A stretch of 63,924 nt of DNA from Planctomycetota bacterium (GCA_018897395.1 JAHIKV010000324.1:1-63924); one strand, 5' to 3'; counted from the first letter of the stretch, positions 9,489-29,930 are shown. Numbers and translations: made by a program. The notes: generated by a model not told the origin, from the sequence alone.

Positions 9489-9851
9489 CTACTTGGAGGC
9501 TTTTTCTTTTTCCAACCTTGCCCGTGCCGTCTTGACCATGTCCTCGCAGACATACTCCTTACAGACGACAGGCTGAAAGCGCACCTTGAGGAGGCAGTGG
9601 CCGGTCACCGTGTCCCTGTAGCGGCACGGTTCAGCCCACATCCAGTCCCGCTCGAAGCCGAAACGCTCCTTCTCGTCCTCTAGAAGGGCTATTCGCCCCT
9701 CCTCGTTCGGCCTCTCGCAGCACCACCCCTCACACTCCACGCAGGCATCCATGCCCAGCCTCTGACACCGCCGGCACAGGTGAGGCTCCATGTCCCAGTA
9801 GATCTTGTTGAACTCGCGCCCGCAGGCGTCACACTTGACCTTCATAGACAA
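9489..9851 (-). CDS. YkgJ-like cysteine-cluster (putative Fe-S/Zn) protein
   Basis: 120 aa with 15 Cys, including CDAC, CRRC and CVECEGWCC clusters. Confidence 0.5.
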   Translation of the reverse strand: MSMKVKCDACGREFNKIYWDMEPHLCRRCQRLGMDACVECEGWCCERPNEEGRIALLEDEKERFGFERDWMWAEPCRYRDTVTGHCLLKVRFQPVVCKEYVCEDMVKTARARLEKEKASK

Positions 9852-10001
9852 CCTTCATTACTCGTTTCGGCCGGATAGTGATTGTACCTCATCCTCAGTT
9901 TGGTTAGAAACAGGCGTCCGCGCAAGATGGTGACAGGCACCAACGCAACTACTTTAGACGTAATCGACATAGGTAGGCCCTCACGGGCTGTCCCTGTCAC
10001 A

Positions 10002-10031
10002 CCACCGTGCATACGGGTCCGTACACGGCGG
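10002..10031 (-). ncRNA. group II intron domain V
   Basis: RNA CCGCCGUG-UACG-GACC-CGUA-UG-CACGGUGG: an 8-bp lower helix, a 2-nt 3' bulge, a 4-bp upper helix and a tetraloop. The 5' strand carries CGC where most introns have AGC, as in class C introns. Confidence 0.65.
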
Positions 10032-10041
10032 TTCGGTAAGG

Positions 10042-11427
10042 TTATGCTATCAGACCGTGTTCCAGCGTTGGGAGTCCGAGCGCGTGGAAGTGGGCATTCG
10101 GGAAGGCGTAGTTCAAGGCCGGGCTGCGGCTAATCCGCCATGGACCGTGGGGGCTGCCCGCCGTCTTTGCGGCCAGCTCTCTCCCTATGTCCCTTGAGCG
10201 AAGTTCCGCGTACCTGGTCCTGCCCCGTATCCACTGTTTCCAGATAACGGAGCGCAGTCGCCTTCTTATCCACGAGTCAAGCTCACGTAGGACCGAGGGC
10301 GTCTGGCAGAAGCCGAAGTAGGCCCGCCATCCAAGCAGATAGCGCCTGAGGTCGGCTATCATCTGCTCTATGCTTATCCCTCGCGTCCTGCGGGTGAGTT
10401 CCCTTATCCGCTTCTTAAAGCGCGCTATCGCCTTCGGGGCGATTCGTCGCCTGGGGTTTTCTCCCCCTGTGAAGCTGAATGCCAGGTAACTCCTCTTCCG
10501 GGGCCTGTCTACCACGCTTTTCTCACTGTTGACCTTGAGCTTGAGCTTGCGGGTGATGAAGCGGGTTATGCTCTCCATTACCCTTCTGCCCGCCCGTTCG
10601 CTTCTCACGTAGATGACTATGTCATCCGCGTACCGCACGAACTTGTGGCCTCTTCTCTCAAGTTCCCGGTCCAGGTCGTCCAGCATGATGTTGGAGAGAA
10701 GCGGTGACAGGGGTCCGCCCTGTGGCGTCCCTTCCACCGTAGGGCTTACCAGCCCTCCCTCCATGACCCCGGAGTTGAGGAAGGCGCGGATGATCTTGAG
10801 CATCCGCTTGTCCTCCACCCTCTTGGCTATCCGCCCCATCAGCATGTCGTGGTTTACCCGGTCGAAGAACTTATCTAAGTCCAGGTCCACCACCCAGTTG
10901 TGACCCTCGGCTATGTATGTCTGCGCCTGGGCCACCGCCTGGTGTGCGCTTCTTCCGGGGCGGAAGCCGTAGCTGCTCTCGGAGAAGGTGGGGTCCCACG
11001 TCGGTGTCAACACCTGTAGTATCGCCTGCTGGATAAAGCGGTCCAGAACCGTGGGGATTCCGAGATTTCTCACGCCCCCGTTTGGCTTCGGTATCTGTAC
11101 CCGCTTGACCGGCTTCGGCTCGTAGGTGCCCGAGAGCAGTTGCTCCCTGATACGGGGCCAGTTCTCCTTGAGGTAGCCGGGTAGCTCCTTGACGGTTATA
11201 CCGTCTATCCCGGGGCTTCCCCTGTTCTTCCTGACTCGTTTGAGTGCCCTATCCAGATTTTCGCGCTCTACCACCACCTCCATCAGGAATTCGGTTTCTG
11301 CCGGGCTTTCGGTTTCGCGTTCCGCCGCGGGCATTTCGGTCCCTTGGTGGGTGGAGGTCGGGGCTTCACCCTTTCCTTCCTCCCACAAGGCCAGTTGATC
11401 CTGGTTGTTCTGCCGCTTTCTACCCAT
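10042..11427 (-). CDS. group II intron reverse transcriptase/maturase (no endonuclease domain)
   Basis: RT blocks include FVRYADDIVIY (YADD). Maturase X domain RRYLLGWRAYFGF. The protein ends without an HNH domain. Confidence 0.92.
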   Translation of the reverse strand: MGRKRQNNQDQLALWEEGKGEAPTSTHQGTEMPAAERETESPAETEFLMEVVVERENLDRALKRVRKNRGSPGIDGITVKELPGYLKENWPRIREQLLSGTYEPKPVKRVQIPKPNGGVRNLGIPTVLDRFIQQAILQVLTPTWDPTFSESSYGFRPGRSAHQAVAQAQTYIAEGHNWVVDLDLDKFFDRVNHDMLMGRIAKRVEDKRMLKIIRAFLNSGVMEGGLVSPTVEGTPQGGPLSPLLSNIMLDDLDRELERRGHKFVRYADDIVIYVRSERAGRRVMESITRFITRKLKLKVNSEKSVVDRPRKRSYLAFSFTGGENPRRRIAPKAIARFKKRIRELTRRTRGISIEQMIADLRRYLLGWRAYFGFCQTPSVLRELDSWIRRRLRSVIWKQWIRGRTRYAELRSRDIGRELAAKTAGSPHGPWRISRSPALNYAFPNAHFHALGLPTLEHGLIA

Positions 11428-11847
11428 GAGTCACGCGTCCTACTAGCCACTCCCTACCGTTCGGGCCTTGGGCGTATATTTCTCTCGCCTACTATGCCCT
11501 CTGCTGACTTCTGCGCCGCGCTCCGGGTTCCTCACGGTTCCCTCAGTCCCTGTGCTACGGGACACGTCGCAGACCTCCCGGGGTAAGTCCGACCGCCTTC
11601 ACCGCGCACCTGCCGGATTTACAGCCATGGCCCTTGATGGATATGGACTTCGTGGTCACTTGCCCGCTCGTCCGGCCATGATTGCCTCCTATCCGGTTCT
11701 TGTCCATCAGGTCGCGGTTTTGCTCCACGCTTCCTTCAGACAACACCTCGCGATGCTGCCCTTGCGCTTCACTAACACTTCACCTCCATCAGGTTGTGTA
11801 GAGGACTTTCACCTCCAAGCTGTCGGACATGCCCGGCACACAAGTAT

Positions 11848-11880: not shown

Positions 11881-14460
11881 TTACCTGTTGCGGTACTTGG
11901 ACCTGAGGGAGGAAAGCGTCTCCGCGGGGAGCGCGGACGCACCCGAACCGCTCGACCCCTGACCAACGTACGCGGACAGCACCCCCAGTGAGCAGTGCGC
12001 GCCGCTCTTGCCATCCGCCGTGTTCACGTACATCGCGCGTTCGCAGACCACGTATTGGTCGCTTTCCACCTTGGTGGAAACGTCCCCAATGTAGTAGTCG
12101 TTAACGTTGAACGACTTCCTGGAGGACGGAGGTAGTGTCGCGGGGGGCCCGGCCACCGGACCTTCGGGCGTCATGAAAGTCAGTTGCACATCGGCCGAGT
12201 TTTCCGTATCCGGGTTCATGACCAGTACCCATTCATCGAATCCGGCCGCGGTGCATCCCTCGGGCAGGTACCAGCCCGTACTACTGTAGATAGACCCGCG
12301 GGAGTTATGCGCGCCCAACTTGCCTTCGGCCGTGGCTATGTACATGGCCATCTCGACCACGACGTCCTGTCCTTCCTCGTCGGTGAAGACCAGCGTCGAC
12401 ACATCTTCCAACGGAACGTAATCGTTGACACAGATAGACTTCCTGCTCCCCGCTGCCAGCATGAACTCCGGGCCGGTGATAATCTCTGTAGGTGTCAGGA
12501 AGAAGAGGTAAACAGGAACCGCGGAGCCGGTCGGGTTCTGTATCAGGACCCACTCCTCGAAACCGGGCCAGGTCGCCCCCTCGGCGACGGCCCATCCCCC
12601 GCCCGCCTGTGAAGAACCCATGGAGTTATGGCAACCAACCTTCCCGTCAGGGGCGTTAATGTACATCGATCGCTCCGCGATAACCCCCCTGCCGGGTGTC
12701 AGGCACTCGACCTTGGTGGAGATATCGCTATTCGGCACAAAATCGTTGACGTGAACGGTATCCCTGGTGCCGCCCGGCAGGCTCCGCCGCGGACCGGGGA
12801 TCTCACCGCCGGGAGTCTGGAACGTCACCTCAACGTCAACCGTGTCGCTGTAAGGGTTCATCACCATAATCCACTCGTCGTATCCGGTCCAGGTGGCGCC
12901 TTCGGCCAGGTACCAGACGTCGGAAACGCCCGGGGATCCGATCGAGTCGTGAGAGCCCCACTTGCCGTCCAGCGTGTTGACGTACATCGCCCTCTCGGCG
13001 CAAATAGGAACCCCGTTGGTGGACGTCACCACCGTGGCCACATCCTGGTTTGGCACCAGTGCGTTCACGTTCACGGTGGTTCGGCTCTGGGCATCAACGG
13101 TAAAGGTCGGGCCAGCAACAGGGCCGTCGGGCGTGAGAAGGGTGAGCTCCACTACTGAATCGTCCGTGTTGGGGTTCTGTACCAGCACCCACTCGCCGAA
13201 TCCGGGCCAAGTCGCGCCTTCGGCGAGGTACCAGCTTCCGCTGGAATACGGTGCGACGGTGAACGAACCGACGTTGGACTTCTCGCTATCCCAGTCGTAG
13301 ACGTAGACGTTCCCTGACTCGACGTCATTGGGGACGGACACCTGTATCTCGTCGTTCTTCCACGAACTCACCGTCGCCTCGCCGGCCCCCGGTGCTACCG
13401 CCGAGCCCGCATCGGGGAACGTCACCTTGGCCAGGCGCCGGGAGGCCCCGAAGTTCGTGCCCGAGATCTTGACCACGTCACCTCCGGCGGCGCTCGATGG
13501 TGTGATGCCGGAGATCTCGGGGCTGGAGTCCCTGTTCCCCATCGCCCACGCATCGGGGACGTAACCCTGGACGAAGTCGTAGCTGAGGTAAACGTCTCCG
13601 TTCCCGTTCCAGCCGGAGCCCCAGGAGTTGATCATCAGAAAGCCGCCAAGGCCAGGGCCGCCCGCGTTATCGTCGTACCCGGCGATGAAAACGGCATGGC
13701 CTCCGGCATTGGCCGAGGAACCATCATAGACGTAGTAATCAGCGCTCGGGTTGACATCGTAGTCGGGGAAATCCAGGTAAATCGGAATCCCCATCACCAG
13801 CGGGGTACCGCCATCGAGGTGCGTCTTCAGGTCAGTGATGACATCCGCACGGGCATAGGGACCCCAGGTCTGCTCGTTGAAGAAGAAACCCCAGTCGTCG
13901 GGTATACGGTACTGCTTGGCCGCCTCCACGTCTGTGGTGTTCGGCTGCTTCAGGTAGTCGTTGATGTAAGGAAACTGCTTATAGTCGCAGTCGCCGGTGT
14001 TCTGAAGGAGCGTCATCGCGTCCGAGAAGCGAGAACCCTCGTCCTTCCCCTCGTTTATCTGGTTGTAGATGAAGGCGGGGCTGAAGTAGTACATATCGTT
14101 GGTGAGATCCCAGGAAGGGTGCTCCCGCTTCTCCCACCAGCTCTTATAGTAATACCCGGTGGCCCAGCCCACGCAGCTGTTGTGGGCTCCCTGGTTACCG
14201 ACGGGCGGAAGGTCGGCCGAGAGGTCCACCGAGGCGGCAAGCGGCATACCGGTGCCTAATTTGCTGGTGTCCAGCTTGTATTTCGGGTCCGGCTCGCTGG
14301 GCAACCAGCCCAACCCGTGCTCGCCCGGCGCTAGGCCCGCCTCCCCACCGTTCCCCCCCGACGCCCCCGGTGGGGACGCCACCACCAGGGGCCCGGCGGC
14401 GACCAGCGCCAGCAGCATCGCCAACACGCATACCATGGAGATGACGATTCTTTTTTTCAT
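11881..14460 (-). CDS. secreted papain-like (C1) cysteine peptidase with a TIG-like domain and four C-terminal ~105-aa repeats
   Basis: Started at ATG 14460 (MKKRIVISMVCVLAMLLALVAAG signal). Catalytic motifs NQGAHNSCVGWA, GGHAVFIAGYDD and NSWGSGW. Four repeats begin WYLAEGATW.G..EW..V.NP. Confidence 0.85.
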   Translation of the reverse strand: MKKRIVISMVCVLAMLLALVAAGPLVVASPPGASGGNGGEAGLAPGEHGLGWLPSEPDPKYKLDTSKLGTGMPLAASVDLSADLPPVGNQGAHNSCVGWATGYYYKSWWEKREHPSWDLTNDMYYFSPAFIYNQINEGKDEGSRFSDAMTLLQNTGDCDYKQFPYINDYLKQPNTTDVEAAKQYRIPDDWGFFFNEQTWGPYARADVITDLKTHLDGGTPLVMGIPIYLDFPDYDVNPSADYYVYDGSSANAGGHAVFIAGYDDNAGGPGLGGFLMINSWGSGWNGNGDVYLSYDFVQGYVPDAWAMGNRDSSPEISGITPSSAAGGDVVKISGTNFGASRRLAKVTFPDAGSAVAPGAGEATVSSWKNDEIQVSVPNDVESGNVYVYDWDSEKSNVGSFTVAPYSSGSWYLAEGATWPGFGEWVLVQNPNTDDSVVELTLLTPDGPVAGPTFTVDAQSRTTVNVNALVPNQDVATVVTSTNGVPICAERAMYVNTLDGKWGSHDSIGSPGVSDVWYLAEGATWTGYDEWIMVMNPYSDTVDVEVTFQTPGGEIPGPRRSLPGGTRDTVHVNDFVPNSDISTKVECLTPGRGVIAERSMYINAPDGKVGCHNSMGSSQAGGGWAVAEGATWPGFEEWVLIQNPTGSAVPVYLFFLTPTEIITGPEFMLAAGSRKSICVNDYVPLEDVSTLVFTDEEGQDVVVEMAMYIATAEGKLGAHNSRGSIYSSTGWYLPEGCTAAGFDEWVLVMNPDTENSADVQLTFMTPEGPVAGPPATLPPSSRKSFNVNDYYIGDVSTKVESDQYVVCERAMYVNTADGKSGAHCSLGVLSAYVGQGSSGSGASALPAETLSSLRSKYRNR

Positions 14461-14568
14461 GCCAGATCCTTTTGTGAGACATCCCGCAACTGCAAACACC
14501 AACCTACACTGATAACCTTACCACTTTTTTCGGCAACGCCGCTCCATACCTTGAGGGCCATCCCCACC

Positions 14569-15180
14569 TTACGGGGCGATGCCCGCTTCCTCCCTCTTGA
14601 GCACCCAGGCAACGGCCTTTCCGGCTCCTTCGAAGATCCACGGCATCGTTCGCTTGAGGAAGTATACAGGAAGCATTATGGGCTGGATTACGTGCCTCTT
14701 GTTCTTCTTTATCCCCTTGACTATCATGCGGCCCATTGTCTCCGGCTTGGCGGCGACCGCCATGAGCAACTTCATGCCCATCCTGACAATAGGCCCCCCG
14801 GTGATCGTCTCGTAGAACGGGGTCTTCACTATCCCCGGGAAGACCGTGGTAACCCCGATCCCGTGCCAGAATAACTCGTAGCGCAGGGCCTCCGAGTAGC
14901 CGTCCACCGCGAACTTGGTGCAGGCGTACGCCCCCCACATCGGCACCGCGAAGAACGCCTGGCCGCTGGATATGTTCACCACCTGGCCCGACCCGCGCTC
15001 TATCATCTTCGGGGCGAACGCGTTTACCATGTGGATTATCGACCACAGGTTCACCGCCAGCAGTTTTGCCCAGTCTTCGAGGGTAGTCTCGATCATGTGC
15101 GACATGTGGGCGATCCCGGATATAACTCTGTTGAGTCCCCTTGTGGGAAATATGACAACTGCTTTCTGGTGCAGGTGCAT
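14569..15180 (-). pseudogene. short-chain dehydrogenase/reductase lacking its Rossmann N-terminus
   Basis: Has the SDR core (NISSGQAF, YACTKFAVDGY = YxxxK) but no TGxxxGxG. Upstream, only a stop-interrupted trace (LPAIALGNHAYSRDE) remains. Confidence 0.6.
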
Positions 15181-15368: not shown

Positions 15369-15626
15369 TTGATGCTGGTAGCACTCCATCGAGCAGAATC
15401 TTCTCCCGCCGGACTGGACCCCGGGACCGTGACCCCCCACGTCTTGCGTCACACTTGCGCGACCGAGCTCCTGCGCCGCGGGGTAAACTTGCGGGTGATT
15501 CAGGAAGCCCTGGGCCACAAGAACATCTCAACAACCCAGATCTACACCCACGTTGTCAACGAGGACGTGCGGCGGGCTATGAGGGTGGGGCCTGGGTTGG
15601 GTTTTAGCCGTAGTAGTGGCACTTGA
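15369..15626 (+). pseudogene. tyrosine recombinase (XerC/D-type) C-terminal fragment, copy A
   Basis: ...[50 protein letters not shown]... has the HxLRH and catalytic Tyr region only, with no N-terminal domains. The 105-bp core 15477-15582 recurs at three other sites. Confidence 0.8.
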
Positions 15627-15662
15627 TGGCCTCACCTTTTGCTTACTATTGAATTCTTCGTT

Positions 15663-16052
15663 TTACGGTGCTGGCGGCACCGGCCAGTTATTTGCAACCC
15701 CTTCGTAAGCAATATCCCTCAAAACATTCACACTGACATCGTACTTTGCGGATACAACAGCATAAGCCTCAGCATCAGAAATACCACTGTCCTGCGCTAC
15801 TACCAAGTCCCAAAACGCTTGCTTTCTCTGAGATTCTGTAAGTCCGTTTTTAACATCAGAGGGTGGTGGAGGTGCTGGTTGAGTTGCTGGTGGAGGTGTT
15901 GGTTCCGGTTCTGGTGCTGTAGTTTCGATTGCTGGTGTTGTTTCTTCGATAGTTTCTTCATCGACTGTTTCTTCTGTCTTTCCACATCCAATAACCATGA
16001 AACACCCAACTGCCATAAGCACTACGACCAAACATACAAGCGACTTTTTCAT
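15663..16052 (-). CDS. lipoprotein, Pro/Thr-rich linker
   Basis: Signal plus lipobox LVVVLMAVGCFMVIGCG. The N-terminus is homologous to that of 21382..21819. Confidence 0.6.
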   Translation of the reverse strand: MKKSLVCLVVVLMAVGCFMVIGCGKTEETVDEETIEETTPAIETTAPEPEPTPPPATQPAPPPPSDVKNGLTESQRKQAFWDLVVAQDSGISDAEAYAVVSAKYDVSVNVLRDIAYEGVANNWPVPPAP

Positions 16053-16072
16053 AACGAACCCACTCCCTTTTT

Positions 16073-16339
16073 CTAGCCCTTTCCAGTTGCATCTGATTCA
16101 TAGTTGCGGGTTGCGATAACATCATGGTTATCGTATTGCTCCAGAGCCTCCCATCCGGGGCGGTCGAAGGTTGCTCCCCTGCTGTAGATATCCTCAAGAA
16201 TATCTCCCAACGGCCACTTCTTGAGCTTGCAGTACTCGCGGATTCGCTGACGCTGGATCTCCGGGGAGAGCTTTTCTTCTGTCGGCCGGGCGTGGGACAC
16301 CCGGATGTAGCCAATGGCGCGCTTCAAAGAACCTGCCAT
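16073..16339 (-). pseudogene. serine recombinase (resolvase/invertase) N-terminal fragment
   Basis: RAIGYIRVS (catalytic Ser context), SPEIQRQRIREYC and FDRPGWEAL are present. The frame stops after 88 aa, before the rest of the catalytic domain and the HTH. Confidence 0.6.
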
Positions 16340-17211
16340 CTAGAAAAAAAGTCTTCGTCTGAGATTTGTCCGTTGTACCACGCTAGGATATCGCTTACCC
16401 CAAGAGTGATAGTCTGTACTGCGTTGCCAGCGGCGTCTCCAACAATCACAGCAACACTGTCTATATCGGCGTTCATTTCATTTTGTGCACCGATTACATA
16501 TCCCCAAATCAAGCCAAGGTCTTGGTAATAACCCTCACTTCCAACAGGGCCTTCCGGGACAAACGTGATAATAGCTAACCTTTCGCCACCCTTTGCCCTG
16601 CCATCTGCTATCCTGGCACTTCCGATGTTAACGTTGCCACTGGCGGCTGTTTCAATCAGTTGCCCGATTTCTTCATCGGTGTATGTGGCTGGGGGTTCCG
16701 GTGTGGGAGCAGGAGCCGGTTGTGTTGCCGCTGGAGCCGTAGTATCGGTTGCAGGCTCGTCCTTCTTGCCTACGTCACCGACTTCAGCCTCGGTGGTTGA
16801 AGTTGCTGGCTCGTCCTTCTTCGCTACCTCCTTCTGCTCAAATCCCCCTGCTATAGCTACGATAATCACGACTATCACAAACAAGGCTACAGCGCCTGCT
16901 ATTACGTACTTGGCATTCCTGGAGAGTCCACGTGCCTTTTTGGCTAGAATAGGAGGCTTGGGGGGAGTGATAACTGAACCACCAGCGGGGGCCGCTTCAA
17001 GGGTCGCTTCTGGAGAAATATTATTGTCGCTAAGCTGATACCTCAAATTGTGGAGGGGAGAGTATACGGTGTACTTGAACTCAGGCATCTGAGGGTTCGG
17101 CGCCACCGTCTCCACCATGACCCTTTCGCCTTCCCTGAAAGCCAATGTACCGTCAATCACGATGTCCTGGTTGACCGTACATATATCCCCTGGCTTTATA
17201 GGTTTAACCAT
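16324..17211 (-). CDS. single-pass membrane protein, unknown function
   Basis: 295 aa. Central TM segment YVIAGAVALFVIVVIIVAIAGG, then a repeated KKDEPAT linker. Confidence 0.6.
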   Translation of the reverse strand: MVKPIKPGDICTVNQDIVIDGTLAFREGERVMVETVAPNPQMPEFKYTVYSPLHNLRYQLSDNNISPEATLEAAPAGGSVITPPKPPILAKKARGLSRNAKYVIAGAVALFVIVVIIVAIAGGFEQKEVAKKDEPATSTTEAEVGDVGKKDEPATDTTAPAATQPAPAPTPEPPATYTDEEIGQLIETAASGNVNIGSARIADGRAKGGERLAIITFVPEGPVGSEGYYQDLGLIWGYVIGAQNEMNADIDSVAVIVGDAAGNAVQTITLGVSDILAWYNGQISDEDFFSRWQVL

Positions 17212-17271
17212 ACTTGCTCCGTAGTCTCTTGCGGCTTATATGAGGATTATAGCCCAATCACTCACCCTTTA

Positions 17272-18174
17272 TCACCTCTCGCTTGTAACGCTGTATCCCG
17301 AATTATCTATAGTTACCACAACATTACCGTTTGTGTCTGTCCTGTAGACCTGCCCGTACGCCCCCAGTTCTCTTAACATTGTTTCTCCAGGGTGACCGTA
17401 GGTGTTGTCAGCCCCAACCAATATGACCGACACCTGTGGTTTAACAGCATCAATAAACGACTGACAGTATGCGGAGTCCCCACCGTGGTGTGGCGCTTTC
17501 AATACCTCCACGGGTGATAATCTCTGCGACACCATGTACTCCTGTGCCGGTACCTCCACGTCTCCGGTTAGCAGCAAGTCCTGCTCTCCTAAACTTATCA
17601 GGAGTACTACGCTGTCGTTGTTCTCGTCGGCTCCCGTCCCACTGTATAGTCCATTGGGCGGGTTCAGCACCTTGACGCTTGCCGACTCCCACTGGTAGCT
17701 CTCGCCGCTCCTTACCTGTCTCCTGGGTATCTTTTTCTCGTCTATCGCCGCACTAGTGGTCTCCCACGCCTTGGTGTCCTTGCCAACGCCTGACTCCCAC
17801 ACCTCTTCAACCTTGTACTTCTCGATGACTTCATTGGCCCCGCCTATGTGGTCGAAATCAGGATGAGTCAGCACAAGGACCTCGATGTCGTCACATCCCA
17901 GATCCTCAAGCTCCTCTACCACTTCGCCCCCAGCGTTGGTCTTCCCCGTGTCCACCACTGCGAAGAAGTCGTCATCCCCCGCCTCCAGCCTGATTATGCA
18001 TGAGTCGCCCTGTCCCACATCAACGAAGGCGACTATCATCTCACCCTCACCGCTCACTCTCCTGCGTATTGATTCCTGCTTCTTGGTAGGCGCTTCCCCT
18101 TTACCGCAGCCAGCTATCAGGACTATAACCAGTGTCAATACAAGGACTGCAGTCGTCCTTCTCTGCGCCATCAT
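17272..18174 (-). CDS. MBL-fold metallo-hydrolase lipoprotein (ComEC C-terminal-domain-like)
   Basis: Lipobox LIAGCG. Motifs HPDFDHIGG (HxHxDH), VLKAPHHG and TDTNG. Confidence 0.8.
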   Translation of the reverse strand: MMAQRRTTAVLVLTLVIVLIAGCGKGEAPTKKQESIRRRVSGEGEMIVAFVDVGQGDSCIIRLEAGDDDFFAVVDTGKTNAGGEVVEELEDLGCDDIEVLVLTHPDFDHIGGANEVIEKYKVEEVWESGVGKDTKAWETTSAAIDEKKIPRRQVRSGESYQWESASVKVLNPPNGLYSGTGADENNDSVVLLISLGEQDLLLTGDVEVPAQEYMVSQRLSPVEVLKAPHHGGDSAYCQSFIDAVKPQVSVILVGADNTYGHPGETMLRELGAYGQVYRTDTNGNVVVTIDNSGYSVTSER

Positions 18175-18380
18175 GCCGTGTTCTCCTTCGGAAATGGATT
18201 AGGCTTCCGGCCAGTACCGGAACGCCTAGATATTGGTGCTTCACCCTTTGATAGACCGGACAGAGTTCAAATGACAGAACTCGTTCTGGCTTGTGTCAAC
18301 AACAAGCCAGAACAAACAACTCAGGCTCTGGTGGATAATACGTGGTAGGCGTCGTCTCGCCGGGAGTCAACTCTTTGTCC

Positions 18381-18758
18381 TCATCTCGATTCCATATCGT
18401 TTTCCCAGGCGTCCTCGGCATACTGCTCGTAGCCCTGCTGATAACCCGCTTCCCACCCGGACTCATACTCGCTTTGAGCCGCCTCCGTCTCGTACTCGCC
18501 GTTATCCTGTGCCTCAACGTCCCAGTAACTCTCATTGTCGTCGTAGGAACCCTCTCCGGCGGCCTCGTATCCTGCTTCATATCCGTCTTCAAGTCCTTCG
18601 TCATTGGCGTCAATTGTGCTCTCGTAGACCTCCTCTTCCTTGTAGTCCGAGGATGGTGTCCCGTAGTGACCGCTGTTGCTACACCCAACAACCGCGAGCA
18701 GAGTAGCGGCAAGGGCTACCAGGACTGCTGCCGCCATGACTTTCTTTATAACAGCCAC
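18381..18758 (-). CDS. highly acidic small lipoprotein
   Basis: GTG start. Lipobox LAVVGCS, followed by a D/E/Y-rich low-complexity body. Confidence 0.55.
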   Translation of the reverse strand: MAVIKKVMAAAVLVALAATLLAVVGCSNSGHYGTPSSDYKEEEVYESTIDANDEGLEDGYEAGYEAAGEGSYDDNESYWDVEAQDNGEYETEAAQSEYESGWEAGYQQGYEQYAEDAWENDMESR

Positions 18759-18759
18759 C

Positions 18760-18891
18760 TCAGGGCCACTTCCACAGCTTGCGTATGACCTTGCGGCCGA
18801 CGTACTTGTTCTTCGCCCTGTTTGCTACCTTCTTGGGTCTGCCACTGGCTATTACCTCGAGGTCCCTCATGATCCTCGAAAGCTTAAACAT
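18760..18891 (-). CDS. possible 43-aa basic protein
   Basis: ATG 18891 to TGA 18762-18760: MFKLSRIMRDLEVIASGRPKKVANRAKNKYVGRKVIRKLWKWP. It ends 1 nt before the next start. The RBS is weak. Confidence 0.3.
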   Translation of the reverse strand: MFKLSRIMRDLEVIASGRPKKVANRAKNKYVGRKVIRKLWKWP

Positions 18892-18924
18892 CTTCGAACT
18901 GGTCTTACCCACGTCCGCTACCCC

Positions 18925-19584
18925 CTACTGCGGTGGTCCGCACACCGAGCACGGCGTATACCCTTCGGCCTTGGCCTGTGATAGCGGTATGGTCCGGGTA
19001 TCGGTCTTTCCCGTCACGTACCTGCAACCGGGGTTGTGGTATTTCTTACCTGTGCGGGTCACCACCACCATCGGCTCGGCAGCTGGTGCAGGAGCCGGAG
19101 CGGGAGCCGGTTGAACTTCAGGCGCAGGTTCGGGAGCAGGCGCAGGAGCGGTAGTCTCCGGCTGTTCCTCCTTCTCTTCTTCTTTTTCGTCAAAGGAGAG
19201 CCCGGCGAGCGTGCAACCGCTCAGGTTACTGTACAGCGAGAGTTCCTCATCTATGGAGTGGGTCCCCTTGCTGGAGACCTCGAACTCGAGCTCCTCTTTC
19301 CCTGTTTCCCCACTTTCCTTTTCGTAGGTTAACTTAATTATCATGTCGCCTGGTCCGTCCGTTGTCACCTCGCCGGTGAGGCGGTAGGCGCTCCCCGACT
19401 TCGAGAGCTTCATATTGTTGAGGTTCGCCCCGCTCACACTCTTGCTCTCCAGGGTGAACGCAGCGGGAACGGTCTTCCCACAGCCGAATACCACCCCCGT
19501 GATGACCAGCATGAGCAGCAGCAGCACAACGGTTGCCCTCGTTTTCATGGTAGATCTCCCCCCTTTGTTATCTCGCCACTTCAC
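18925..19584 (-). CDS. lipoprotein with C-terminal KYH...C...CxxC metal-binding-like motif
   Basis: Lipobox VVFGCG, an AP-rich linker, and the C-terminus TGKKYHNPGCRYV...TPCSVCGPP. Confidence 0.6.
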   Translation of the reverse strand: MKWRDNKGGRSTMKTRATVVLLLLMLVITGVVFGCGKTVPAAFTLESKSVSGANLNNMKLSKSGSAYRLTGEVTTDGPGDMIIKLTYEKESGETGKEELEFEVSSKGTHSIDEELSLYSNLSGCTLAGLSFDEKEEEKEEQPETTAPAPAPEPAPEVQPAPAPAPAPAAEPMVVVTRTGKKYHNPGCRYVTGKTDTRTIPLSQAKAEGYTPCSVCGPPQ

Positions 19585-19626
19585 CGAGGATTATATCACC
19601 AGTAACGCCCCGAGGCCCAGACAGCC

Positions 19627-19763
19627 CCCCTGCGCCAGGCAAGCCGCCGCCGCGGGGTAACCCTCCGGGTGATCCAGGAAGCCCTGGGGCACAAGAACAT
19701 ATCCACCACCCAGATCTACACCCACGTCGTAAACGAGGACGTGCGGCGGGCGATGAGCCGTTC
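19627..19763 (+). pseudogene. tyrosine recombinase 3' fragment, copy B
   Basis: [44 protein letters not shown]. Core 19651-19756. Confidence 0.75.
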
Positions 19764-19904
19764 TTACATAACAAAAGCGAGGCCATCTCTGACCCCGCTT
19801 TTCCATGCCTTACCATGCCGAACCGCGCCCTTCCGAACACCGACCACGCCTAACCATACTGGGCCTAACCGAACCCTGCCACGGCATCTTCAAGTACAAC
19901 AAAA

Positions 19905-19926
19905 GCGGCCCAAATTAATGGGCCGC
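19905..19926. terminator. bidirectional-looking hairpin
   Basis: AAAA-GCGGCCCA-AAUUAA-UGGGCCGC-UUU. Confidence 0.5.
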
Positions 19927-20090
19927 TTTGTAGCCTTGCCATACCCCGCCGAACCACACCACACCATTCCACGCCGAGCCATGCCGAACCAAACCGGACC
20001 TAACCACGCCGTGCCAAACCCTGCCTAGCAAAGGCGTTATGGGACAGATTCGAGTTCGTGTAAACTCCCAAACACGGAAGCTGGCTGAAC

Positions 20091-20285
20091 ATGGCCGAGA
20101 TAGAGTTGAACGTGCTCACGGGACAATGTTTGAAAAGAAGGATCGACGATATCGATGTTGTCAGAAGAGAGGTACGGGCATGGCAAGAATACAGGAACAA
20201 CAAGAACGCCAAGGTCAACTGGCAGTTTACAACAGAGGATGCCCGGATAAAGCTATCGCGTCTTTACCCGACACTTGAGGGTTGA
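20091..20285 (+). pseudogene. IS630-family transposase C-terminal remnant
   Basis: MAEIELNVLTGQCLKRRI...WQFTTEDARIKLSRLYP aligns with the last ~64 aa of the intact copy (MAEIELSILSRQCLSRRI...WRFTTDDARIKLKKLYP). Confidence 0.75.
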
Positions 20286-20560
20286 CGCGACACTAGACGG
20301 AAACAGCCGCCAGGAGATCGCTTTCACTACCATCATGGCTGAGGGCGGGGCTGTGGGTTTCTACAACAACGAGGTAACCTGGAGCATCGGGAGGTGTGCA
20401 GTGAGTGTAAGCGGCAATAACCAAAATGTACGTGACAACAACATCGACCATATGGGCAATCCGGGCTGCAGATGCTTCCCTGAAACAACTGTGATGATCG
20501 AGGGCAACGCAGGTGACCGATTTCACCTTAAACTTTATTTCTAAGATGCCTGAGAACAAA

Positions 20561-20794
20561 CTACCATTCTATACTCGCGGTTCCGTCTGATTTTCTGCCG
20601 CCTTTGACCCGACCGACAGATTTTCCACAGGCGGGACATTTTCTATATCCTTTCTCGCCTTGGGGATCGACATGCATCCGAGTATCGCTGACTATGAATA
20701 CTTTCTTACATGCAGGGCATGTAAGGGCAGCATTGTTTCCTTCCCAATCTTCATCATGTTTAAGCTCGTTATGGATGAGATTTCTGATTGGCAT
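20561..20794 (-). CDS. zinc-ribbon protein, unknown function
   Basis: 77 aa with CPACKK...CPACGK pairs. Confidence 0.5.
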   Translation of the reverse strand: MPIRNLIHNELKHDEDWEGNNAALTCPACKKVFIVSDTRMHVDPQGEKGYRKCPACGKSVGRVKGGRKSDGTASIEW

Positions 20795-21114
20795 ATTGGC
20801 CCTTCCATTAGTTGTGCCGCTTAAGCCGGTATTTCCCCATTGGCCCCCTCCAACACCTGTTTCTTATCACGAATCCGGCCTTTCCCTCAAGGTTGACAAC
20901 CTCGGGAACTCCCTGCGCCGCTTCGCTCTCTCCCAAGAGAGGTTTCACCCGATATCCTTCATATACCGCTTCCAACGCCGATATTCTACCACGATTCGAG
21001 CCTTTCCAGCATGGTCGACTGGAATCTGCGGCATGCTCGCCGATTGACCTCTCCACGTCACCTCCAGGCCTCGTATTTTTCCGTTGTCCGGATCCCGAAG
21101 CTCTGAGAGCCCTC

Positions 21115-21334
21115 CTTACGCCCGGCAAGCCGCCGGCGCGGGGCAAAGACCCCACGTATACCTTACCTTTGGCCCGGCGGCTGAAGCGGGGTCAACTTCC
21201 GGGTGATCCAGGAGGCCCTCGGGCACAAGAACATCTCCACCACACAGATCTACACCCACGTAGTCAATGAGGACGTCAGGCGGGCTATGAAGGGGGGGCC
21301 TGGGTTAGGTCGGAACCGCAGTGCTTACACTTGA
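21115..21334 (+). pseudogene. tyrosine recombinase 3' fragment, copy C (internally disrupted)
   Basis: LRPASRRRG, then a ~40-bp insert with a stop, then [41 protein letters not shown]...*. Core 21186-21290. The GPGLG tail is shared with copy A. Confidence 0.75.
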
Positions 21335-23075: not shown

Positions 23076-23702
23076 TCATTCGCCAAATGATGGGTAGAGT
23101 TTCTTCAATTTGATCCTAGCATCGTCGGTGGTGAAACGCCAGTCGATGGATGAGTTTTTAGCGTTGCGCGCTTTCTCCCACGCTGCTACCTCATCTCGTA
23201 ATCTCTGCTGGTCGGGAATCCTACGCGAGAGGCACTGGCGGGAAAGGATGCTCAACTCGATCTCCGCCATATTCAGCCAGCTGCCATGCTTCGGGGTGTA
23301 GTGAAGCTCAAGGCGGCACAGTATCCGTCTTGCCTCTTCGGGAGCGAACGCCTCGTAAAGCGAGGAGGGGCAGTGTGTGTTCAAGTTGTCCATGACCACC
23401 GTGATTCTTTTCGCACTGGGGAAGTGCTCGTCCACCAGTTCGCGCATCCCAAGAGCCCAGTCGATCTTCGTCCGCCTGTCGGTGACCTTAACATGCCGCC
23501 AGCCCTCCAAGGGCGCGAAGAACATGAACAGGTTGCTGACGCCGTTGCGCCGGTACTCGGAATCGTAGCGGCGGCCTCGGCCCTGCTTCATGGCATGAGG
23601 CTCGCGCACCTCCATGATCTGCTGCTTGCTCGTCTCATCCATGCAGACAAGGGGGCGCTCCGCGTCACAGGGGCGCGTGTACACCTCAAGAACATCCTCC
23701 AT
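23076..23702 (-). CDS. IS630 transposase, DDE catalytic part (orfB frame)
   Basis: MEDVLEVYTRP...VCMDETSKQ...VVMDNLNTH...WLNMAEIELS is typical of the IS630/Tc1 DDE domain. Confidence 0.85.
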   Translation of the reverse strand: MEDVLEVYTRPCDAERPLVCMDETSKQQIMEVREPHAMKQGRGRRYDSEYRRNGVSNLFMFFAPLEGWRHVKVTDRRTKIDWALGMRELVDEHFPSAKRITVVMDNLNTHCPSSLYEAFAPEEARRILCRLELHYTPKHGSWLNMAEIELSILSRQCLSRRIPDQQRLRDEVAAWEKARNAKNSSIDWRFTTDDARIKLKKLYPSFGE

Positions 23703-23734
23703 CTTCCATACGAACTCGGCGCTGGCAACTGGTG

Positions 23735-24199
23735 CTATACACCACTCTTTGACAAGCCACGGTTTAATTTCGTTTTTTTTAGAACCTGGCGGACCGTCTC
23801 ATGGGAGAGGCTGTCCACATAGGCAAGCTCAACCATCTTCCCGGCCAGCATGCGCAGGGTCCAGCGAGTGTGACCCTCCGGCGCCTCGCTGCATGCCAGC
23901 GCGATCAGATGCGCCTCCTGCTCACCGTCAAGTTTCCTTGCATATGGTCTCGGCTTGATGCTGCGGGCTCCCAGGGCAATGTCCATTCCCTCCTCCACAA
24001 ACCGCTGGCGGATACGTTGCACCGTCGGGAGACTGACAAGAAACGCTTCACGGATCCTCTCGTCTGTCCATCCGGCATCAGCTTTGAGCAGTACGTGTGC
24101 CCACCTGATCCTTCTTGCCGAATGTTTCCCGGTGCTGATTATCTCCTTCAGCTCGTCCCGCTCCTCCTCGGTCAGATCAACAACATATTTCTTGTTCAT
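23735..24199 (-). CDS. IS630 transposase, N-terminal HTH part (orfA frame)
   Basis: DLTEEERDELKEII...ARRIRWAHVLLKADAGW, and a second HTH with SHETVRQVLKK. Ends shortly after an A8 run. Confidence 0.85.
   Translation of the reverse strand: MNKKYVVDLTEEERDELKEIISTGKHSARRIRWAHVLLKADAGWTDERIREAFLVSLPTVQRIRQRFVEEGMDIALGARSIKPRPYARKLDGEQEAHLIALACSEAPEGHTRWTLRMLAGKMVELAYVDSLSHETVRQVLKKTKLNRGLSKSGV
23773..23780 (-). other. A8 slippery run linking transposase orfA and orfB
   Basis: On the coding strand, CUA AAA AAA ACG. A -1 slip on A_AAA_AAA, or one extra A, continues as NEIKPWLVKEWCIAPVASAEFVWKMEDVLEVY into orfB. Confidence 0.55.
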
Positions 24200-27632: not shown

Positions 27633-27721
27633 TGGTGCCGACGGAGGGATTCGAACCCCCACGCCCGTTGCCGGACACCTGGATTTAAGCCAAGCGCGTC
27701 TTCCAGTTCCGCCACGTCGGC
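27633..27721 (-). tRNA. tRNA-Leu(UAA)
   Basis: Acceptor GCCGACG/CGUCGGC, anticodon loop CU-UAA-AU, long variable arm, T-loop UUCGAAU, CCA encoded. Confidence 0.85.
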
Positions 27722-27797
27722 TGGTAGCCCCTGCTGGTCTCGAACCAGCGGCCTCCTGTTTGTAAGACAGGCGCTCTCCCTGCTGAGCTAAGGGGCT
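27722..27797 (-). tRNA. tRNA-Val(UAC)
   Basis: Loop CU-UAC-AA, A1-U72, CCA encoded. Confidence 0.85.
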
Positions 27798-27801
27798 GTG
27801 T

Positions 27802-27888
27802 TGGTACCGGTGGAGAGAGTCGAACTCCCACGCCCTTTCGGACACCTGGTCCTAAGCCAGGCGCGTCTTCCAGTTCCGCCACACCGGC
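27802..27888 (-). tRNA. tRNA-Leu(UAG)
   Basis: Loop CU-UAG-GA, long variable arm, CCA encoded. Confidence 0.85.
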
Positions 27889-28051
27889 ACGGTTACCGCA
27901 ACAGCCATTAACCCCGGTTCCGTTCTACCCGGCCATCTATCTCGAGGCTTTATGCACCCCAGGTCATTGTTTCCCCCGGAGTTTCTCCTAAGGAACACTC
28001 GTTCCTCAGCGACAGGTGGTTGTCGCGGCAATATTCAGTTTTCAAGGTAGC

Positions 28052-28139
28052 TGGTGGCCGCACCAGGATTCGAACCTGGATGCTCGATGCGAACGGGAGC
28101 TTTTGAGGCCCCTGCGTCTTCCAATTCCGCCATACGGCC
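28052..28139 (-). tRNA. tRNA-Leu(CAA)
   Basis: Loop CU-CAA-AA, long variable arm, CCA encoded. Confidence 0.85.
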
Positions 28140-28142
28140 ATT

Positions 28143-28218
28143 TGGTCCCGAGGGCTGGGATTGAACCAGCGACGCCCTGGTCTTCGGCCAGGCGCTCTAC
28201 CGTCTGAGCTACCTCGGG
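28143..28218 (-). tRNA. tRNA-Phe(GAA), C33 variant
   Basis: Stem CCUGG/CCAGG, loop CC-GAA-GA (C at position 33), C1-G72, CCA encoded. Confidence 0.75.
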
Positions 28219-28221
28219 TTC

Positions 28222-28312
28222 TGGCGGAGAGAGCAGGACTCGAACCTGCAAGACGGCACTTGACCGTCCACGGGTTAGCAACCCGCTGCCTTACCAATTC
28301 GGCCACCTCTCC
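28222..28312 (-). tRNA. tRNA-Ser(GCU)
   Basis: Loop UU-GCU-AA, long variable arm, CCA encoded. Confidence 0.85.
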
Positions 28313-28313
28313 G

Positions 28314-28387
28314 TGGTTTGGGAGGGAGGGATCGAACCTCCAGCACCAGGTCCAAAGCCTGGCGTTCTACCGTTGAACTACTCCCAA
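28314..28387 (-). tRNA. tRNA-Gln(UUG)
   Basis: U1-A72, loop CU-UUG-GA, CCA encoded. Confidence 0.85.
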
Positions 28388-28388
28388 G

Positions 28389-28462
28389 TGGATGCCCGGG
28401 GAGGGGTCGAACCCCCGTCTCCTGGTCCAGGGCCAGGCGTCTTCCCACTAGACTACCGGGCA
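28389..28462 (-). tRNA. tRNA-Gln(CUG), C33 variant
   Basis: U1-A72, loop CC-CUG-GA (C33), CCA encoded. Confidence 0.75.
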
Positions 28463-28463
28463 T

Positions 28464-28556
28464 TGGCGGAGGGGAAGGGGATCGAACCCTTAAGACCCTC
28501 TCGGGCTCAACTGTTTTCAAGACAGTCTCCGTCGCCAGCCTTCGGATTGCCCCTCC
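28464..28556 (-). tRNA. tRNA-Ser(UGA)
   Basis: Acceptor GGAGGGG/CCCCUCC, G73, 3-bp D stem, loop CU-UGA-AA, long variable arm, CCA encoded. Confidence 0.8.
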
Positions 28557-28569
28557 GCACGCTTATAAT

Positions 28570-28646
28570 TGGTCGGGGTGGCAGGATTTGAACCTGCGCC
28601 CCCATGGTCCCAAACCATGTGCGCTACCTGACTGCGCCACACCCCG
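28570..28646 (-). tRNA. tRNA-Pro(UGG)
   Basis: Loop UU-UGG-GA, CCA encoded. Confidence 0.85.
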
Positions 28647-28655
28647 ATGATTTTC

Positions 28656-28731
28656 TGGAGCGACCGGCGGGTCTTGAACCCGCGACCTCAACCCTGGCAA
28701 GGTTGCGCTCTACCGTCTGAGCTACGGTCGC
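28656..28731 (-). tRNA. tRNA-Gly(GCC)
   Basis: Loop UU-GCC-AG, CCA encoded. Confidence 0.85.
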
Positions 28732-28732
28732 T

Positions 28733-28807
28733 TGGAGCGAGCAAAGGGGTTCGAACCCTTATGGCCGACTTGGAAGGCCGGGGCTCTACCGATTGAGCTA
28801 TGCTCGC
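28733..28807 (-). tRNA. tRNA-Gly(UCC)
   Basis: Loop CU-UCC-AA, CCA encoded. Confidence 0.85.
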
Positions 28808-28883
28808 TGGTGGAACCGGTCGGGATCGAACCGACAACCTCCTGGTTGCAAACCAGGTGCTCTCCCGATTGAGCTACAGTCCC
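28808..28883 (-). tRNA. tRNA-Ala(UGC)
   Basis: Loop UU-UGC-AA, G3:U70 identity pair present, CCA encoded. Confidence 0.9.
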
Positions 28884-28887
28884 GCGA

Positions 28888-28963
28888 TGGTCGGCCCGGC
28901 AAGAATCGAACTTGCAATCTACCGGTTAAGAGCCGGTTGCTCTGCCAATTGAGCTACGGGCCG
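28888..28963 (-). tRNA. tRNA-Lys(CUU)
   Basis: Loop CU-CUU-AA, CCA encoded. Confidence 0.85.
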
Positions 28964-28964
28964 A

Positions 28965-29039
28965 TGGTAGCGGCGGTGGGGATCGAACCCACGACCTCCA
29001 GGGTATGAACCTGGTGAGCTAACCACTGCTCCACGCCGC
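28965..29039 (-). tRNA. tRNA-Met(CAU), elongator type
   Basis: Loop UU-CAU-AC, paired 1:72, no GGG/CCC anticodon stem, CCA encoded. Confidence 0.8.
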
Positions 29040-29044
29040 ATTGT

Positions 29045-29119
29045 TGGGGTGACCTACCGGAATCGCACCGGCACCTCCAGGGCCACGGCCTGACGCTCTT
29101 CTATTGAGCTAAGGTCACC
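29045..29119 (-). tRNA. tRNA-His(GUG), C33 and atypical T-loop
   Basis: Encoded G-1 opposite C73, loop CC-GUG-GC (C33), T-loop UGCGAUU, CCA encoded. Confidence 0.7.
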
Positions 29120-29123
29120 TCGT

Positions 29124-29200
29124 TGGCTGCGGTGGCAAGATTCGAACTTGCGACACGGCGGTTAACAGCCGCCTGCTCTACCACTGAGCTACACCGCAGC
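29124..29200 (-). tRNA. tRNA-Asn(GUU)
   Basis: Loop CU-GUU-AA, CCA encoded. Confidence 0.85.
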
Positions 29201-29350
29201 GTTGCCCGACCCCACTCGAGAGGTCGGGCTTGCCGTTGACCGCCCTGGCCGATCACGTTACCTTAATACTGCTGCAAACGCTCTTGCTTCTCTCTTCAAT
29301 CAAACCCCCTTCCTTGCCTTTCTTTGCCAGTCACTCACGCTTTAGTTTTT

Positions 29351-29434
29351 TGGTGGGGATGTCAGGAATCGAACCTGCCTAGTCATCGACGCCGGGGTTA
29401 CGGCCCGGCACAGCTCCCACGCTGTCGCATCCCC
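29351..29434 (-). tRNA. tRNA-Tyr(GUA), C33 variant
   Basis: Loop CC-GUA-AC (C33), long variable arm as in bacterial tRNA-Tyr, CCA encoded. Confidence 0.7.
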
Positions 29435-29435
29435 T

Positions 29436-29509
29436 TGGAGGCGGAGACAGGAATCGCACCTGCGTGTGCCGGTTTGCAGCCGGCCGCTTTTCTCCTCAGC
29501 CACTCCGCC
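29436..29509 (-). tRNA. tRNA-Cys(GCA), atypical T-loop
   Basis: Loop CU-GCA-AA, T-loop UGCGAUU, CCA encoded. Confidence 0.75.
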
Positions 29510-29510
29510 T

Positions 29511-29660: not shown

Positions 29661-29664
29661 TGTT

Positions 29665-29929: not shown

Positions 29930-29930
29930 T

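Follow-up and report, generated by a model that had tools for sequence, protein, structure and literature searches.

The stretch of DNA analysed here, hereafter the window, comprises 63,924 nucleotides (nt) of a genome assembly labelled Planctomycetota bacterium (GCA_018897395.1 JAHIKV010000324.1:1-63924). It contains one family of direct repeats with four members (starts 15478, 19652, 21186 and 51283 in the repeat search), separated by unrelated DNA, and across 15-52 kb the GC content falls from ~0.60 to ~0.52. The repeated segment is the last ~36 codons of a tyrosine recombinase gene. On balance, we favour the reading that these copies, named A to D, are the junctions of a tandem array of units from a mobile-element family whose integrase of ~190 amino acids (aa) has its attachment site (att) in the 3' end of its own gene. 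The same locus is present, with 99-100% identity, in two KR13 Actinomycetota metagenome-assembled genomes (MAGs) and in two other assemblies.

A preliminary description of the sequence had reported that a recombinase gene's 3' end is present four times in the same orientation, each time detached from an intact gene. The repeat search, nhmmer and tblastn agree on this. The nhmmer profile of 68 homologous copies produces exactly four matches in the window (E 4e-30 to 2e-26; the next one has E 2.3). In tblastn, the intact 188-aa protein of a related MAG aligns by aa130-187 to copy A (15408-15581), by aa152-188 to copy B (19648-19758), by aa154-187 to copy C (21188-21289) and by aa161-188 to copy D (51306-51389), and no N-terminal part of the recombinase is found anywhere in the window. 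Since the profile finds these four alone and there is no N-terminal part, the four-copy observation is real and far beyond chance. The core copies, as delimited, are 15474-15584 (the shared core of copy A), 19648-19758, 21186-21290 and 51282-51389, all in direct orientation. Aligned together with their flanks, they have ~105-110 nt in common, with sharp edges. In codons 161-187 the four copies vary in 17 nucleotide columns within 16 codons, with zero amino acid changes. Such a proportion of synonymous differences (17/17) is far above what chance or a shared motif would give. Upstream of codon 161 the window copies carry amino acid replacements, and copy D is scrambled there. Copy A contains HxxR, the histidine and the tyrosine nucleophile; the other fragments contain the histidine and the tyrosine only. 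The copy A remnant with its 50-nt left flank recurs in two related loci, L054 and L057.

The copies, the units between them and the surrounding features are as follows.

11881-15180, minus strand: left-hand neighbours of the array, a gene for an 873-aa DUF5719 surface protein (11881-14502) and an N-terminally truncated SDR gene (14569-15180), from Pfam
15408-15584, plus strand: copy A, recombinase remnant aa130-187 (tblastn, 98% identity to the intact 188-aa protein; nhmmer E 4.4e-30)
15585-15645, plus strand: tail after copy A, the left end of unit 1 (GPGLG...ACTTGA, tail class T4), shared with the tail after copy C
15585-19647, no strand assigned: unit 1, 4.1 kb, without integrase gene (ORFs, that is, open reading frames, and Pfam)
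19600-19647, plus strand: flank (i), a conserved ~45-nt right-end sequence (CCCGAGGCCC..GCCCCCCTGCGCCAGGCAAGCCGCCG) abutting the core (alignment)
19648-19758, plus strand: copy B, recombinase aa152-188 (tblastn, nhmmer)
19759-21185, no strand assigned: unit 2, 1.4 kb, without integrase gene (ORFs, Pfam, alignments)
21186-21290, plus strand: copy C, recombinase aa154-187 (tblastn, nhmmer)
21291-51281, no strand assigned: unit 3, 30 kb, without integrase gene, GC ~0.53 against ~0.60 outside
51230-51281, plus strand: right-end flank of unit 3, a variant of flank (i) with a GGCCC-TCA-GGGCC palindrome (alignment; also in L030 and L019)
51282-51389, plus strand: copy D, aa161-188 intact and ending in AMS*, codons 153-160 degenerate
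51390-56655, minus strand: right-hand anchor, tail class T1 (AGTTAGTGCTCCAATTCAAGACTACGG...) and a convergent gene for a 1727-aa DUF5719/TIG/BNR surface protein (51472-56655), from Pfam
63494-63924, plus strand: window end, the last 45 nt of which (63880-63924) are identical to positions 1-45 of L037

The layout is one contiguous array of three units, in the order A, unit 1, B, unit 2, C, unit 3, D, and not two islands paired as A/B and C/D, as had been proposed. The tails of A and C are indeed alike for about 72 nt beyond the ATG, and only these two continue together, for some 50-70 nt past the common segment. The tails of B and D, described as a second common type, share one Ser codon after AM and are otherwise unrelated, so there is no B/D type. 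The lipoprotein genes that had been considered homologous between the islands share only the signal peptide and lipobox; their mature parts are not homologous (BLASTP E = 24). On the other hand, tandem accretion with the copies as attachment-site junctions is borne out by the flanks, which across loci are reshuffled exactly at the core, and the decay zone is evident in Pfam matches to the truncated SDR, a truncated serine recombinase and IS630 pieces. As part of the favoured reading, it is reasonably probable that three mobile islands were inserted in succession and that the four copies mark where they join. Pfam and ORF scans find neither an intact integrase nor relaxase or coupling-protein genes in the three units. 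As no unit has an integrase, the array is either a fossil or dependent on a copy in trans; without the action of an intact copy located elsewhere, it probably does not move. The array in the window is not headed by an intact target gene, since copy A starts at aa130, whereas those in L031, L032, L044 and L057 are.

Related loci were collected with a degenerate DNA pattern of the core peptide, ending in (E/D)DV. There were 7 genome loci and 50 metagenome loci; about 60 loci in all, carrying 69 core copies, are denoted by L numbers below. An intact recombinase gene whose 3' end matches the copies, such as the preliminary description had proposed to look for, occurs in L002 and L003 (both Actinomycetota MAGs), L062, and about 15 metagenome contigs; among the loci searched, it was found only in metagenome contigs and Actinomycetota MAGs. 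It encodes a protein of 188-190 aa, MGDNGTIRFLEPAEV...RRAMS, here named Rec188. This is an Xer-like protein consisting of the catalytic domain only: it aligns only to residues 111-287 of XerD (phmmer match XerD 1a0p, E 1.6e-27), PF00589 is assigned to all family members, and the 188-aa sequence has the full catalytic set of tyrosine recombinases (R..K..HxxR..H/W..Y), in the motifs GLRISE, GKG, HVLRH, LGH and IYTH. No separate ORF for a core-binding domain was found upstream of the recombinase gene. In the database search the family forms about 55 clusters of 185-216 aa with at least 50% identity, all from metagenomes or MAGs and with generic names; two-domain Xer proteins (~317 aa; PF02899/PF13495) appear only at ~40% identity. 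Literature searches retrieved no description of the family, which is weak evidence of absence.

Recombinase genes with 92-96% identity (L032, L020, L028, L003) have only ~105 nt upstream in common and are preceded by unrelated DNA beyond that. The recombinase promoter contains GTATTGTTACC twice in direct orientation and the inverted motif AGGTAACAAT over the ribosome-binding site (RBS) and start codon (L002 266-325, L028 4389-4448; also L020, L032, L041, L044, L062). These motifs probably form an operator for autoregulation or for an element repressor. As a candidate site near the cores GTATTGTTACC was rejected, being absent from the window and confined to promoters of the integrase gene (int). 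In L032 (~6225), L023 (~1270) and L041 (~3690) the recombinase gene is cut a few codons after the start by unrelated DNA. The cuts look like ends of insertion sequences (IS), and the contigs stop there; the cut in L041 shows repeated CAAAGTGGACAG motifs. This suggests that the operator and start are a preferred IS target.

Arrays of two to four copies in direct orientation, spaced by 0.8-5.5 kb, are found in many contigs (L001, L008, L013/L015, L026, L031, L036, L037, L040, L042/L052, L044, L049, L057). Copies without a complete int start reproducibly at GCGGGGTnAAC (aa152-154) behind three unrelated flank families, (i), (iii) and (iv). Those with flank family (ii), from a sister lineage with the motif GHAWVS, start at aa164, and a few others at aa169-171. 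All 69 copies end at Met187, after which the tails diverge; depending on the tail, the C-terminus of the protein is altered by 0-15 residues. In the alignment flank (i) abuts the core in at least eight loci, including L005/L033, L034, L042/L052, L025, L008 and L030. The possibility that it is diverged upstream sequence of the gene was rejected, as its local alignment scores equal those of shuffled controls.

Left flanks and tails were clustered across loci to test the joints at the core. Tail T1, which is the tail of copy D and leads into a DUF5719 gene, is joined to four left-flank classes, and so is tail T2; conversely, five tail classes occur with the left-flank class L1, and flank (iv) is combined with T1 and T9. 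T9 itself is found behind an intact gene in L037 and behind a fragment in L044. The left flank of window copy C is like flank (iv) by eye but clusters apart (class L34); its tail is T4. The switch from flank to tail is always inside the core (codons ~152-187, 69 copies). Judging from the sequences, this reticulate pattern was left by recombination at the core. At the protein level, fragments in other loci are constrained to the same degree as full genes. Together with the reticulate joints, this is to be expected if exchange at the core has recurred and 3' ends have time and again been rejoined to a functional gene. A palindromic site CACGT..ACGTG within the core was considered and rejected, since it rests on a third codon position with G in only 36% of copies.

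The preliminary description had noted that intact genes at equivalent positions in related genomes would indicate independent gene decay. Such genes do occur at equivalent junctions, together with deletion intermediates: a promoter fused to aa135 in L046, and fragments starting from aa14, 92 and 113. Some fragments are therefore decayed element integrases. However, this is only a part of the picture, as both duplication of att and gene decay occur. Several remnants start within six codons of each other, namely copy A, L054 and L057 (aa130), L053 (aa132), the second copy of L037 (aa134) and L046 (aa135). These four apparently independent cases form a second cluster of boundaries, besides the one at aa152-154.

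Complete units run from cargo through the promoter to an intact recombinase gene that reads into the core at the right end. An intact gene is situated at the unit's own right end in L028, L022, L031, L032, L041/L056, L044 and L037. In L028 it is preceded by genes for a TrwB/TraG-type coupling protein and Replic_Relax and by a small ORF; Replic_Relax also occurs upstream of int in L022 and L031, and HTH_17 (excisionase-type) proteins are encoded in L020 and L029. An integrase accompanied by mobility genes of the relaxase/coupling-protein kind is a feature of the related units in L028, L022, L031 and L020, and not of those in the window. Tandems of the form int-cargo-int are seen in L032, L041/L056, L044 and L037; in some of them an IS cuts the second gene right after its start. 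No other intact integrase is encoded in the 15 inter-copy units of 12 loci, nor in the three units of the window. The cargo of units in other loci includes GmrSD_N with a RiboL-PSP HEPN protein, a type III-like methylase with a helicase, Mrr-type nucleases, an AbiEii-like ATPase, a Schlafen-AlbA_2 protein, lipoproteins, Zn-ribbon membrane proteins and a solute-binding protein.

Because the relatives have an intact right-end gene reading into the core, the recombinase looks like the elements' own integrase, and this, with att inside its own ORF, is its most likely role. The earlier idea that a recombinase gene is the target stands insofar as the repeated segment is a recombinase 3' end. However, this gene is not just a passive target, since intact copies reside on autonomous relatives of the window units.

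The following mechanism would account for the arrays. The att site would lie within the last ~20-37 codons of the integrase gene, in the segment with the catalytic His and Tyr. A complete unit, ordered as tail, cargo, promoter/operator and integrase gene reading outward into the core, would recombine with a core already in place, whether this belongs to an intact resident gene or is a fragment left behind by one. The 5' side of the resident would gain the core-distal part of the incoming unit with its tail, and the incoming integrase gene would gain the resident tail. Each junction would keep an integrase 3' end, with the reading frame restored each time, and redundant integrase copies in the array would then lose their 5' parts. 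The widespread units without int, which keep only the conserved ~45-nt flank and the core, would need an integrase in trans. Copy A would be the remnant of the resident integrase or that of the left unit. We infer that Rec188 catalyses these events and that the strand exchange takes place within the core.

In their architecture the arrays correspond to islands accreted in tandem at a gene's 3' end; what is unusual is that integrase coding sequence forms the repeat. As with islands at tRNA and tmRNA genes and SCCmec arrays at rlmH/orfX, a direct repeat of the target's 3' end marks each junction, the frame or gene end is restored by the element that comes in, and some units have no recombinase. 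Unlike in those systems, the repeat is the recombinase gene's own 3' end, intact copies recur inside arrays, and the array of the window is headed by a remnant of the gene only.

By analogy, the nearest conceptual relative is the archaeal SSV-type module with att inside int. These 'suicidal' integrases (SSV1, pTN3, pT26-2) have att within the ORF, forming a compact int-att module, and integration yields chimeric integrase genes (PMC7253208, PMC8371274); self-disrupting recombinases are stated in a review to be known only in Archaea (PMC8371274). Here, too, flanks switch within codons ~152-187, which places the putative strand-exchange site inside the integrase ORF, and chimeric integrases would be composed of parts of different origin. 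However, SSV-type integration splits the gene into two inactive halves, whereas a site at the very 3' end, as here, spares the gene and regenerates a full-length copy. Indeed, full-length genes persist at junctions in L032, L041/L056 and L044. The domains differ as well (Xer-like PF00589 instead of PF16795), and so do the hosts, which are nearly all labelled Actinomycetota. L001, a 4.6-kb contig (JALHSX010000023.1) with core copies at 3374-3469 and 4419-4484, 1 kb apart, is labelled as a Thermoplasmata archaeon MAG; this reflects either mis-binning or spread beyond Actinomycetota.

Like integrons (IntI, attI, attC), the arrays are headed by a tyrosine recombinase gene followed by small units, mostly lacking a recombinase, each bounded by a copy of the recombination site and carrying adaptive cargo such as defence and surface-protein genes. 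In contrast to integrons, the site is in the 3' end of the gene and not in an upstream attI, the units have several genes with their own promoters, and Rec188 reaches only half of IntI's size. The insertion typical of the IntI catalytic domain is not seen in it either; its alignment with IntI4 (2a3v) is limited to query residues 110-181. Whereas attC sites fold as imperfect hairpins in single-stranded DNA, no significant structure was obtained when either strand of the four cores was folded as DNA (z-scores -1.7 to +1.7), and attC-like folded sites were therefore rejected.

Arm-less Xer-derived integrases (Brujita Int, XerT, and IMEX using XerCD at dif) serve element integration (PMC8138268). 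They resemble Rec188 in having an Xer-like catalytic domain and no arm-binding domain. However, they keep the core-binding domain (about 300 aa), whereas Rec188 is catalytic only (~190 aa), and the site here is the enzyme's coding sequence rather than a dif-like intergenic site. Chromosomal XerC and XerD, the dimer resolvases that act at dif, are two-domain proteins of ~300 aa with an N-terminal core-binding (SAM-like) domain and reside at a single conserved locus. Rec188, with 188-190 aa, is encoded by near-identical genes in unrelated contexts, sometimes several per contig; dif itself was not searched for. Actinomycete integrative conjugative or mobilizable elements (AICEs; pSAM2, SLP1, pMEA300) have full-size integrases, attB sites in tRNA genes and attP downstream of int (PMC2440964). 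The related loci are similar to them in the terminal position of int, whose 3' end coincides with or precedes attP, in genes of the HTH_17 (excisionase-like), Replic_Relax and coupling-protein-like kinds, and in their Actinomycetota hosts. They differ in that the identity segment is int coding sequence, and the window's own units have neither int nor HTH_17, Replic_Relax or coupling genes.

With these parallels in mind, we tentatively suggest that the system may be a bacterial, non-suicidal counterpart of the archaeal att-inside-int modules. Rec188 would recombine its own C-terminal coding sequence, swap the segment with the Tyr nucleophile at each integration, and thus build chimeric integrases. 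The same site would act as an integron-like platform for defence and surface-protein cassettes without int, as well as for a 30-kb plasmid with a tRNA array, in uncultured Actinomycetota. We rate this as somewhat less likely than not.

Several observations weigh against an integrase acting on the end of its own gene. Rec188 has no core-binding domain and none is encoded upstream, which leaves its capacity to integrate DNA putative. In the material examined, which consists of assemblies, neither an excised circle nor an empty site or population polymorphism was seen; the four other assemblies of the window locus are structurally identical. Fragment starts are spread from aa14 to aa171 without a single boundary, and the crossover could not be mapped, as the flank-linked polymorphisms are scattered and uninformative. 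RecA-dependent exchange between repeats of 60-110 bp could yield a part of the flank reshuffling. Finally, L003 and L062 have their intact gene at the border of housekeeping DNA, shortly before the contig breaks off; a host-resident gene that acts as target or platform would account for this position just as well. Because the gene in these two loci borders housekeeping DNA, a chromosome-resident copy as the founding site is also likely.

One alternative builds on that position. A small chromosome-resident recombinase beside a DUF5719 gene would capture cassettes without int at its own 3' end, by integron-like logic; units composed of flank and core would then be its normal substrates and not decay products, and the copies on plasmid-like elements would be secondary. 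This agrees with the intact genes between housekeeping DNA and a contig break, with the small size (1-5 kb) of most units, which lack int and carry defence or surface-protein cargo, with the repeated junction of flank (i) to the core, and with the coding constraint on fragments. It is less compatible with intact genes in the interior of arrays and on units that also encode relaxases or coupling proteins, with an upstream context of near-identical genes that is not conserved beyond ~105 nt, with the lack of attC-like hairpins, and with units that have their own promoters and several genes in either orientation. We regard it as unlikely. Still less credit is due to the literal model of the preliminary description, in which unrelated elements with different, since-lost integrases insert into the 3' end of a conserved host gene. 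Islands at tRNA or tmRNA genes and SCC elements at rlmH share this passive-target architecture, the truncated serine recombinase is at the left end of unit 1, and the differing segment starts (aa152-154, 164, 169-171) could reflect different integrases. However, no other intact integrase is found in the 18 units, the serine recombinase remnant has no counterpart in any other locus, and the supposed target itself travels with the right ends of the elements.

It is very improbable that no site-specific process was involved, that is, that the copies are independently decayed paralogous pseudogenes or arose by segmental duplication and homologous recombination. In its favour, there are deletion intermediates of widely varying length, and the IS630 pieces, truncated SDR and truncated serine recombinase show that decay is active in the window. 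But independent decay would not leave 17 differences none of which is nonsynonymous, and this explanation would produce neither a common start point behind three unrelated flank families nor a reticulate pattern of flanks and tails switching exactly at the core. Segmental duplication in particular is contradicted by the unrelated flanks on both sides of each copy.

If the recombinase does act on its own 3' end, few known integration modules would be as compact as this gene, which carries its own site within ~570 bp. Placement of att inside int, to date described for no integrases other than the archaeal SSV type, would then be a principle of Bacteria as well, in a form that leaves the gene intact. 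This would explain a recurrent hypervariable hot spot in uncultured Actinomycetota at which defence systems and surface proteins are exchanged, as well as the presence in a chromosome of a plasmid-like element of 30 kb that encodes an almost full tRNA set but no integrase. Since contigs often break at these repeats, there would be a defined way of delimiting islands in fragmented metagenome assemblies. For genome engineering, too, a recombinase of 190 aa whose site does not exceed 110 bp would merit a test.

The T4 tail at the left end of unit 1 is also found behind intact genes in L008, L044 and L051. After copy A, and likewise after copy C, it contains a predicted hairpin (RNAfold, -25.7 kcal/mol) followed by TTTTG or a T run; a simple terminator scan did not flag the hairpin of the A tail. 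According to this folding model, tails of the A/C type may supply a terminator to the recombinase gene. Unit 1 contains five lipoprotein or secreted-protein genes on the minus strand, including one for an MBL-fold protein, and, at its left end, the truncated serine recombinase gene (16073-16339). The latter has no homologue in the 57 other loci; as a truncated singleton, it was rejected as a candidate integrase of the islands. To the left of the array, the truncated SDR spans Pfam positions 86-189 of 195, with the break toward copy A.

Unit 2 has a unique tail, an IS630 transposase fragment (20091-20285, plus strand) and a Zn-ribbon gene (20561-20794, minus strand). Then follow the promoter/leader element of the latter gene (20949-21035), a motif similar to flank (i) (21089-21135) and flank (iv) (21160-21185), which is also present at two copies in L044.

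Unit 3 starts with an A-type tail, three lipoprotein genes, IS630 (23076-24199) and genes for DUF2786/DUF7168 and DUF1848 proteins. Further on there are a tRNA array (27633-30584) and genes for an NAD-dependent ligase, a PD-(D/E)XK nuclease and a radical SAM protein; genes for SSB, ParB and ParA, a CobT-like VWA protein and a CobS-like AAA protein come last. The nhmmer profile finds no further core copy inside it. By this composition unit 3 is a ParAB plasmid-like element. No phage structural genes were seen in this 30-kb unit, and no relatives of it were found in viral contigs. The tRNA array is on the minus strand and contains 29 tRNA genes according to ARAGORN and 30 according to Rfam (the extra one at 29514-29584), with anticodons for all 20 amino acids. 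The IS630 element of this unit is complete (DDE_3 and HTH ORFs, minus strand). The fragment in unit 2 is the C-terminal part of a transposase of the same IS630 family in inverted orientation relative to it, and these pieces are possible agents of rearrangement within the array.

The T1 tail and gene 3' end of the right-hand anchor also stand behind a core copy in L005/L033, L044 and L046, and the equivalent T2 tail with its gene 3' end does so in L009, L031, L039, L053 and L055. In 20 loci, genes for DUF5719 surface proteins flank the recombinase gene or the last of its fragments; in L044/L051, L053 and L062 such a gene is beside the recombinase gene or remnant, and the window has one on each side. 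At the far right end of the window, exact-protein look-ups returned no record for two proteins. In the metagenome contig L037 an intact recombinase gene is located 313 nt beyond the stretch identical to the window end. By extrapolation, an intact copy or a second array may lie just beyond the end of the window and could supply the enzyme in trans; this is a lead, not proof.

An element of ~85 nt occurs at 20949-21035 and 63500-63585 of the window, in L032 (6082-6145), L041 (7-64), L023 (1147-1200), L018, L031 and L039, and in other loci. Read on the reverse strand, it consists of an extended -10 promoter (TGATAGAAT) and GGAGG, followed by a short leader ORF (MVDIGY...) that overlaps with the beginning of the secreted-protein gene downstream. 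Its positions upstream of copy C and at the window end made it a candidate att arm; this was rejected, as the element reads as the promoter, RBS and mini-ORF of a divergent gene. Elsewhere it also precedes DUF5719 and lipoprotein genes, and it appears to be a lineage-wide expression signal outside att.

A group II intron (~9600-11760, minus strand; Rfam matches 11464-11546 and 11588-11757) is located directly 3' of the gene for the 873-aa DUF5719 protein and contains a reverse transcriptase ORF (10042-11427); a related reverse transcriptase adjoins a DUF5719 gene in L005/L033. The large surface proteins encoded at 51472-56655 and 11881-14502 have DUF5719 repeats (WYLAEGAT...) and TIG domains, and the 1727-aa protein also contains many BNR/Ycf48-like repeats of ~40 aa (repeat families D1, D3, D5, D8).

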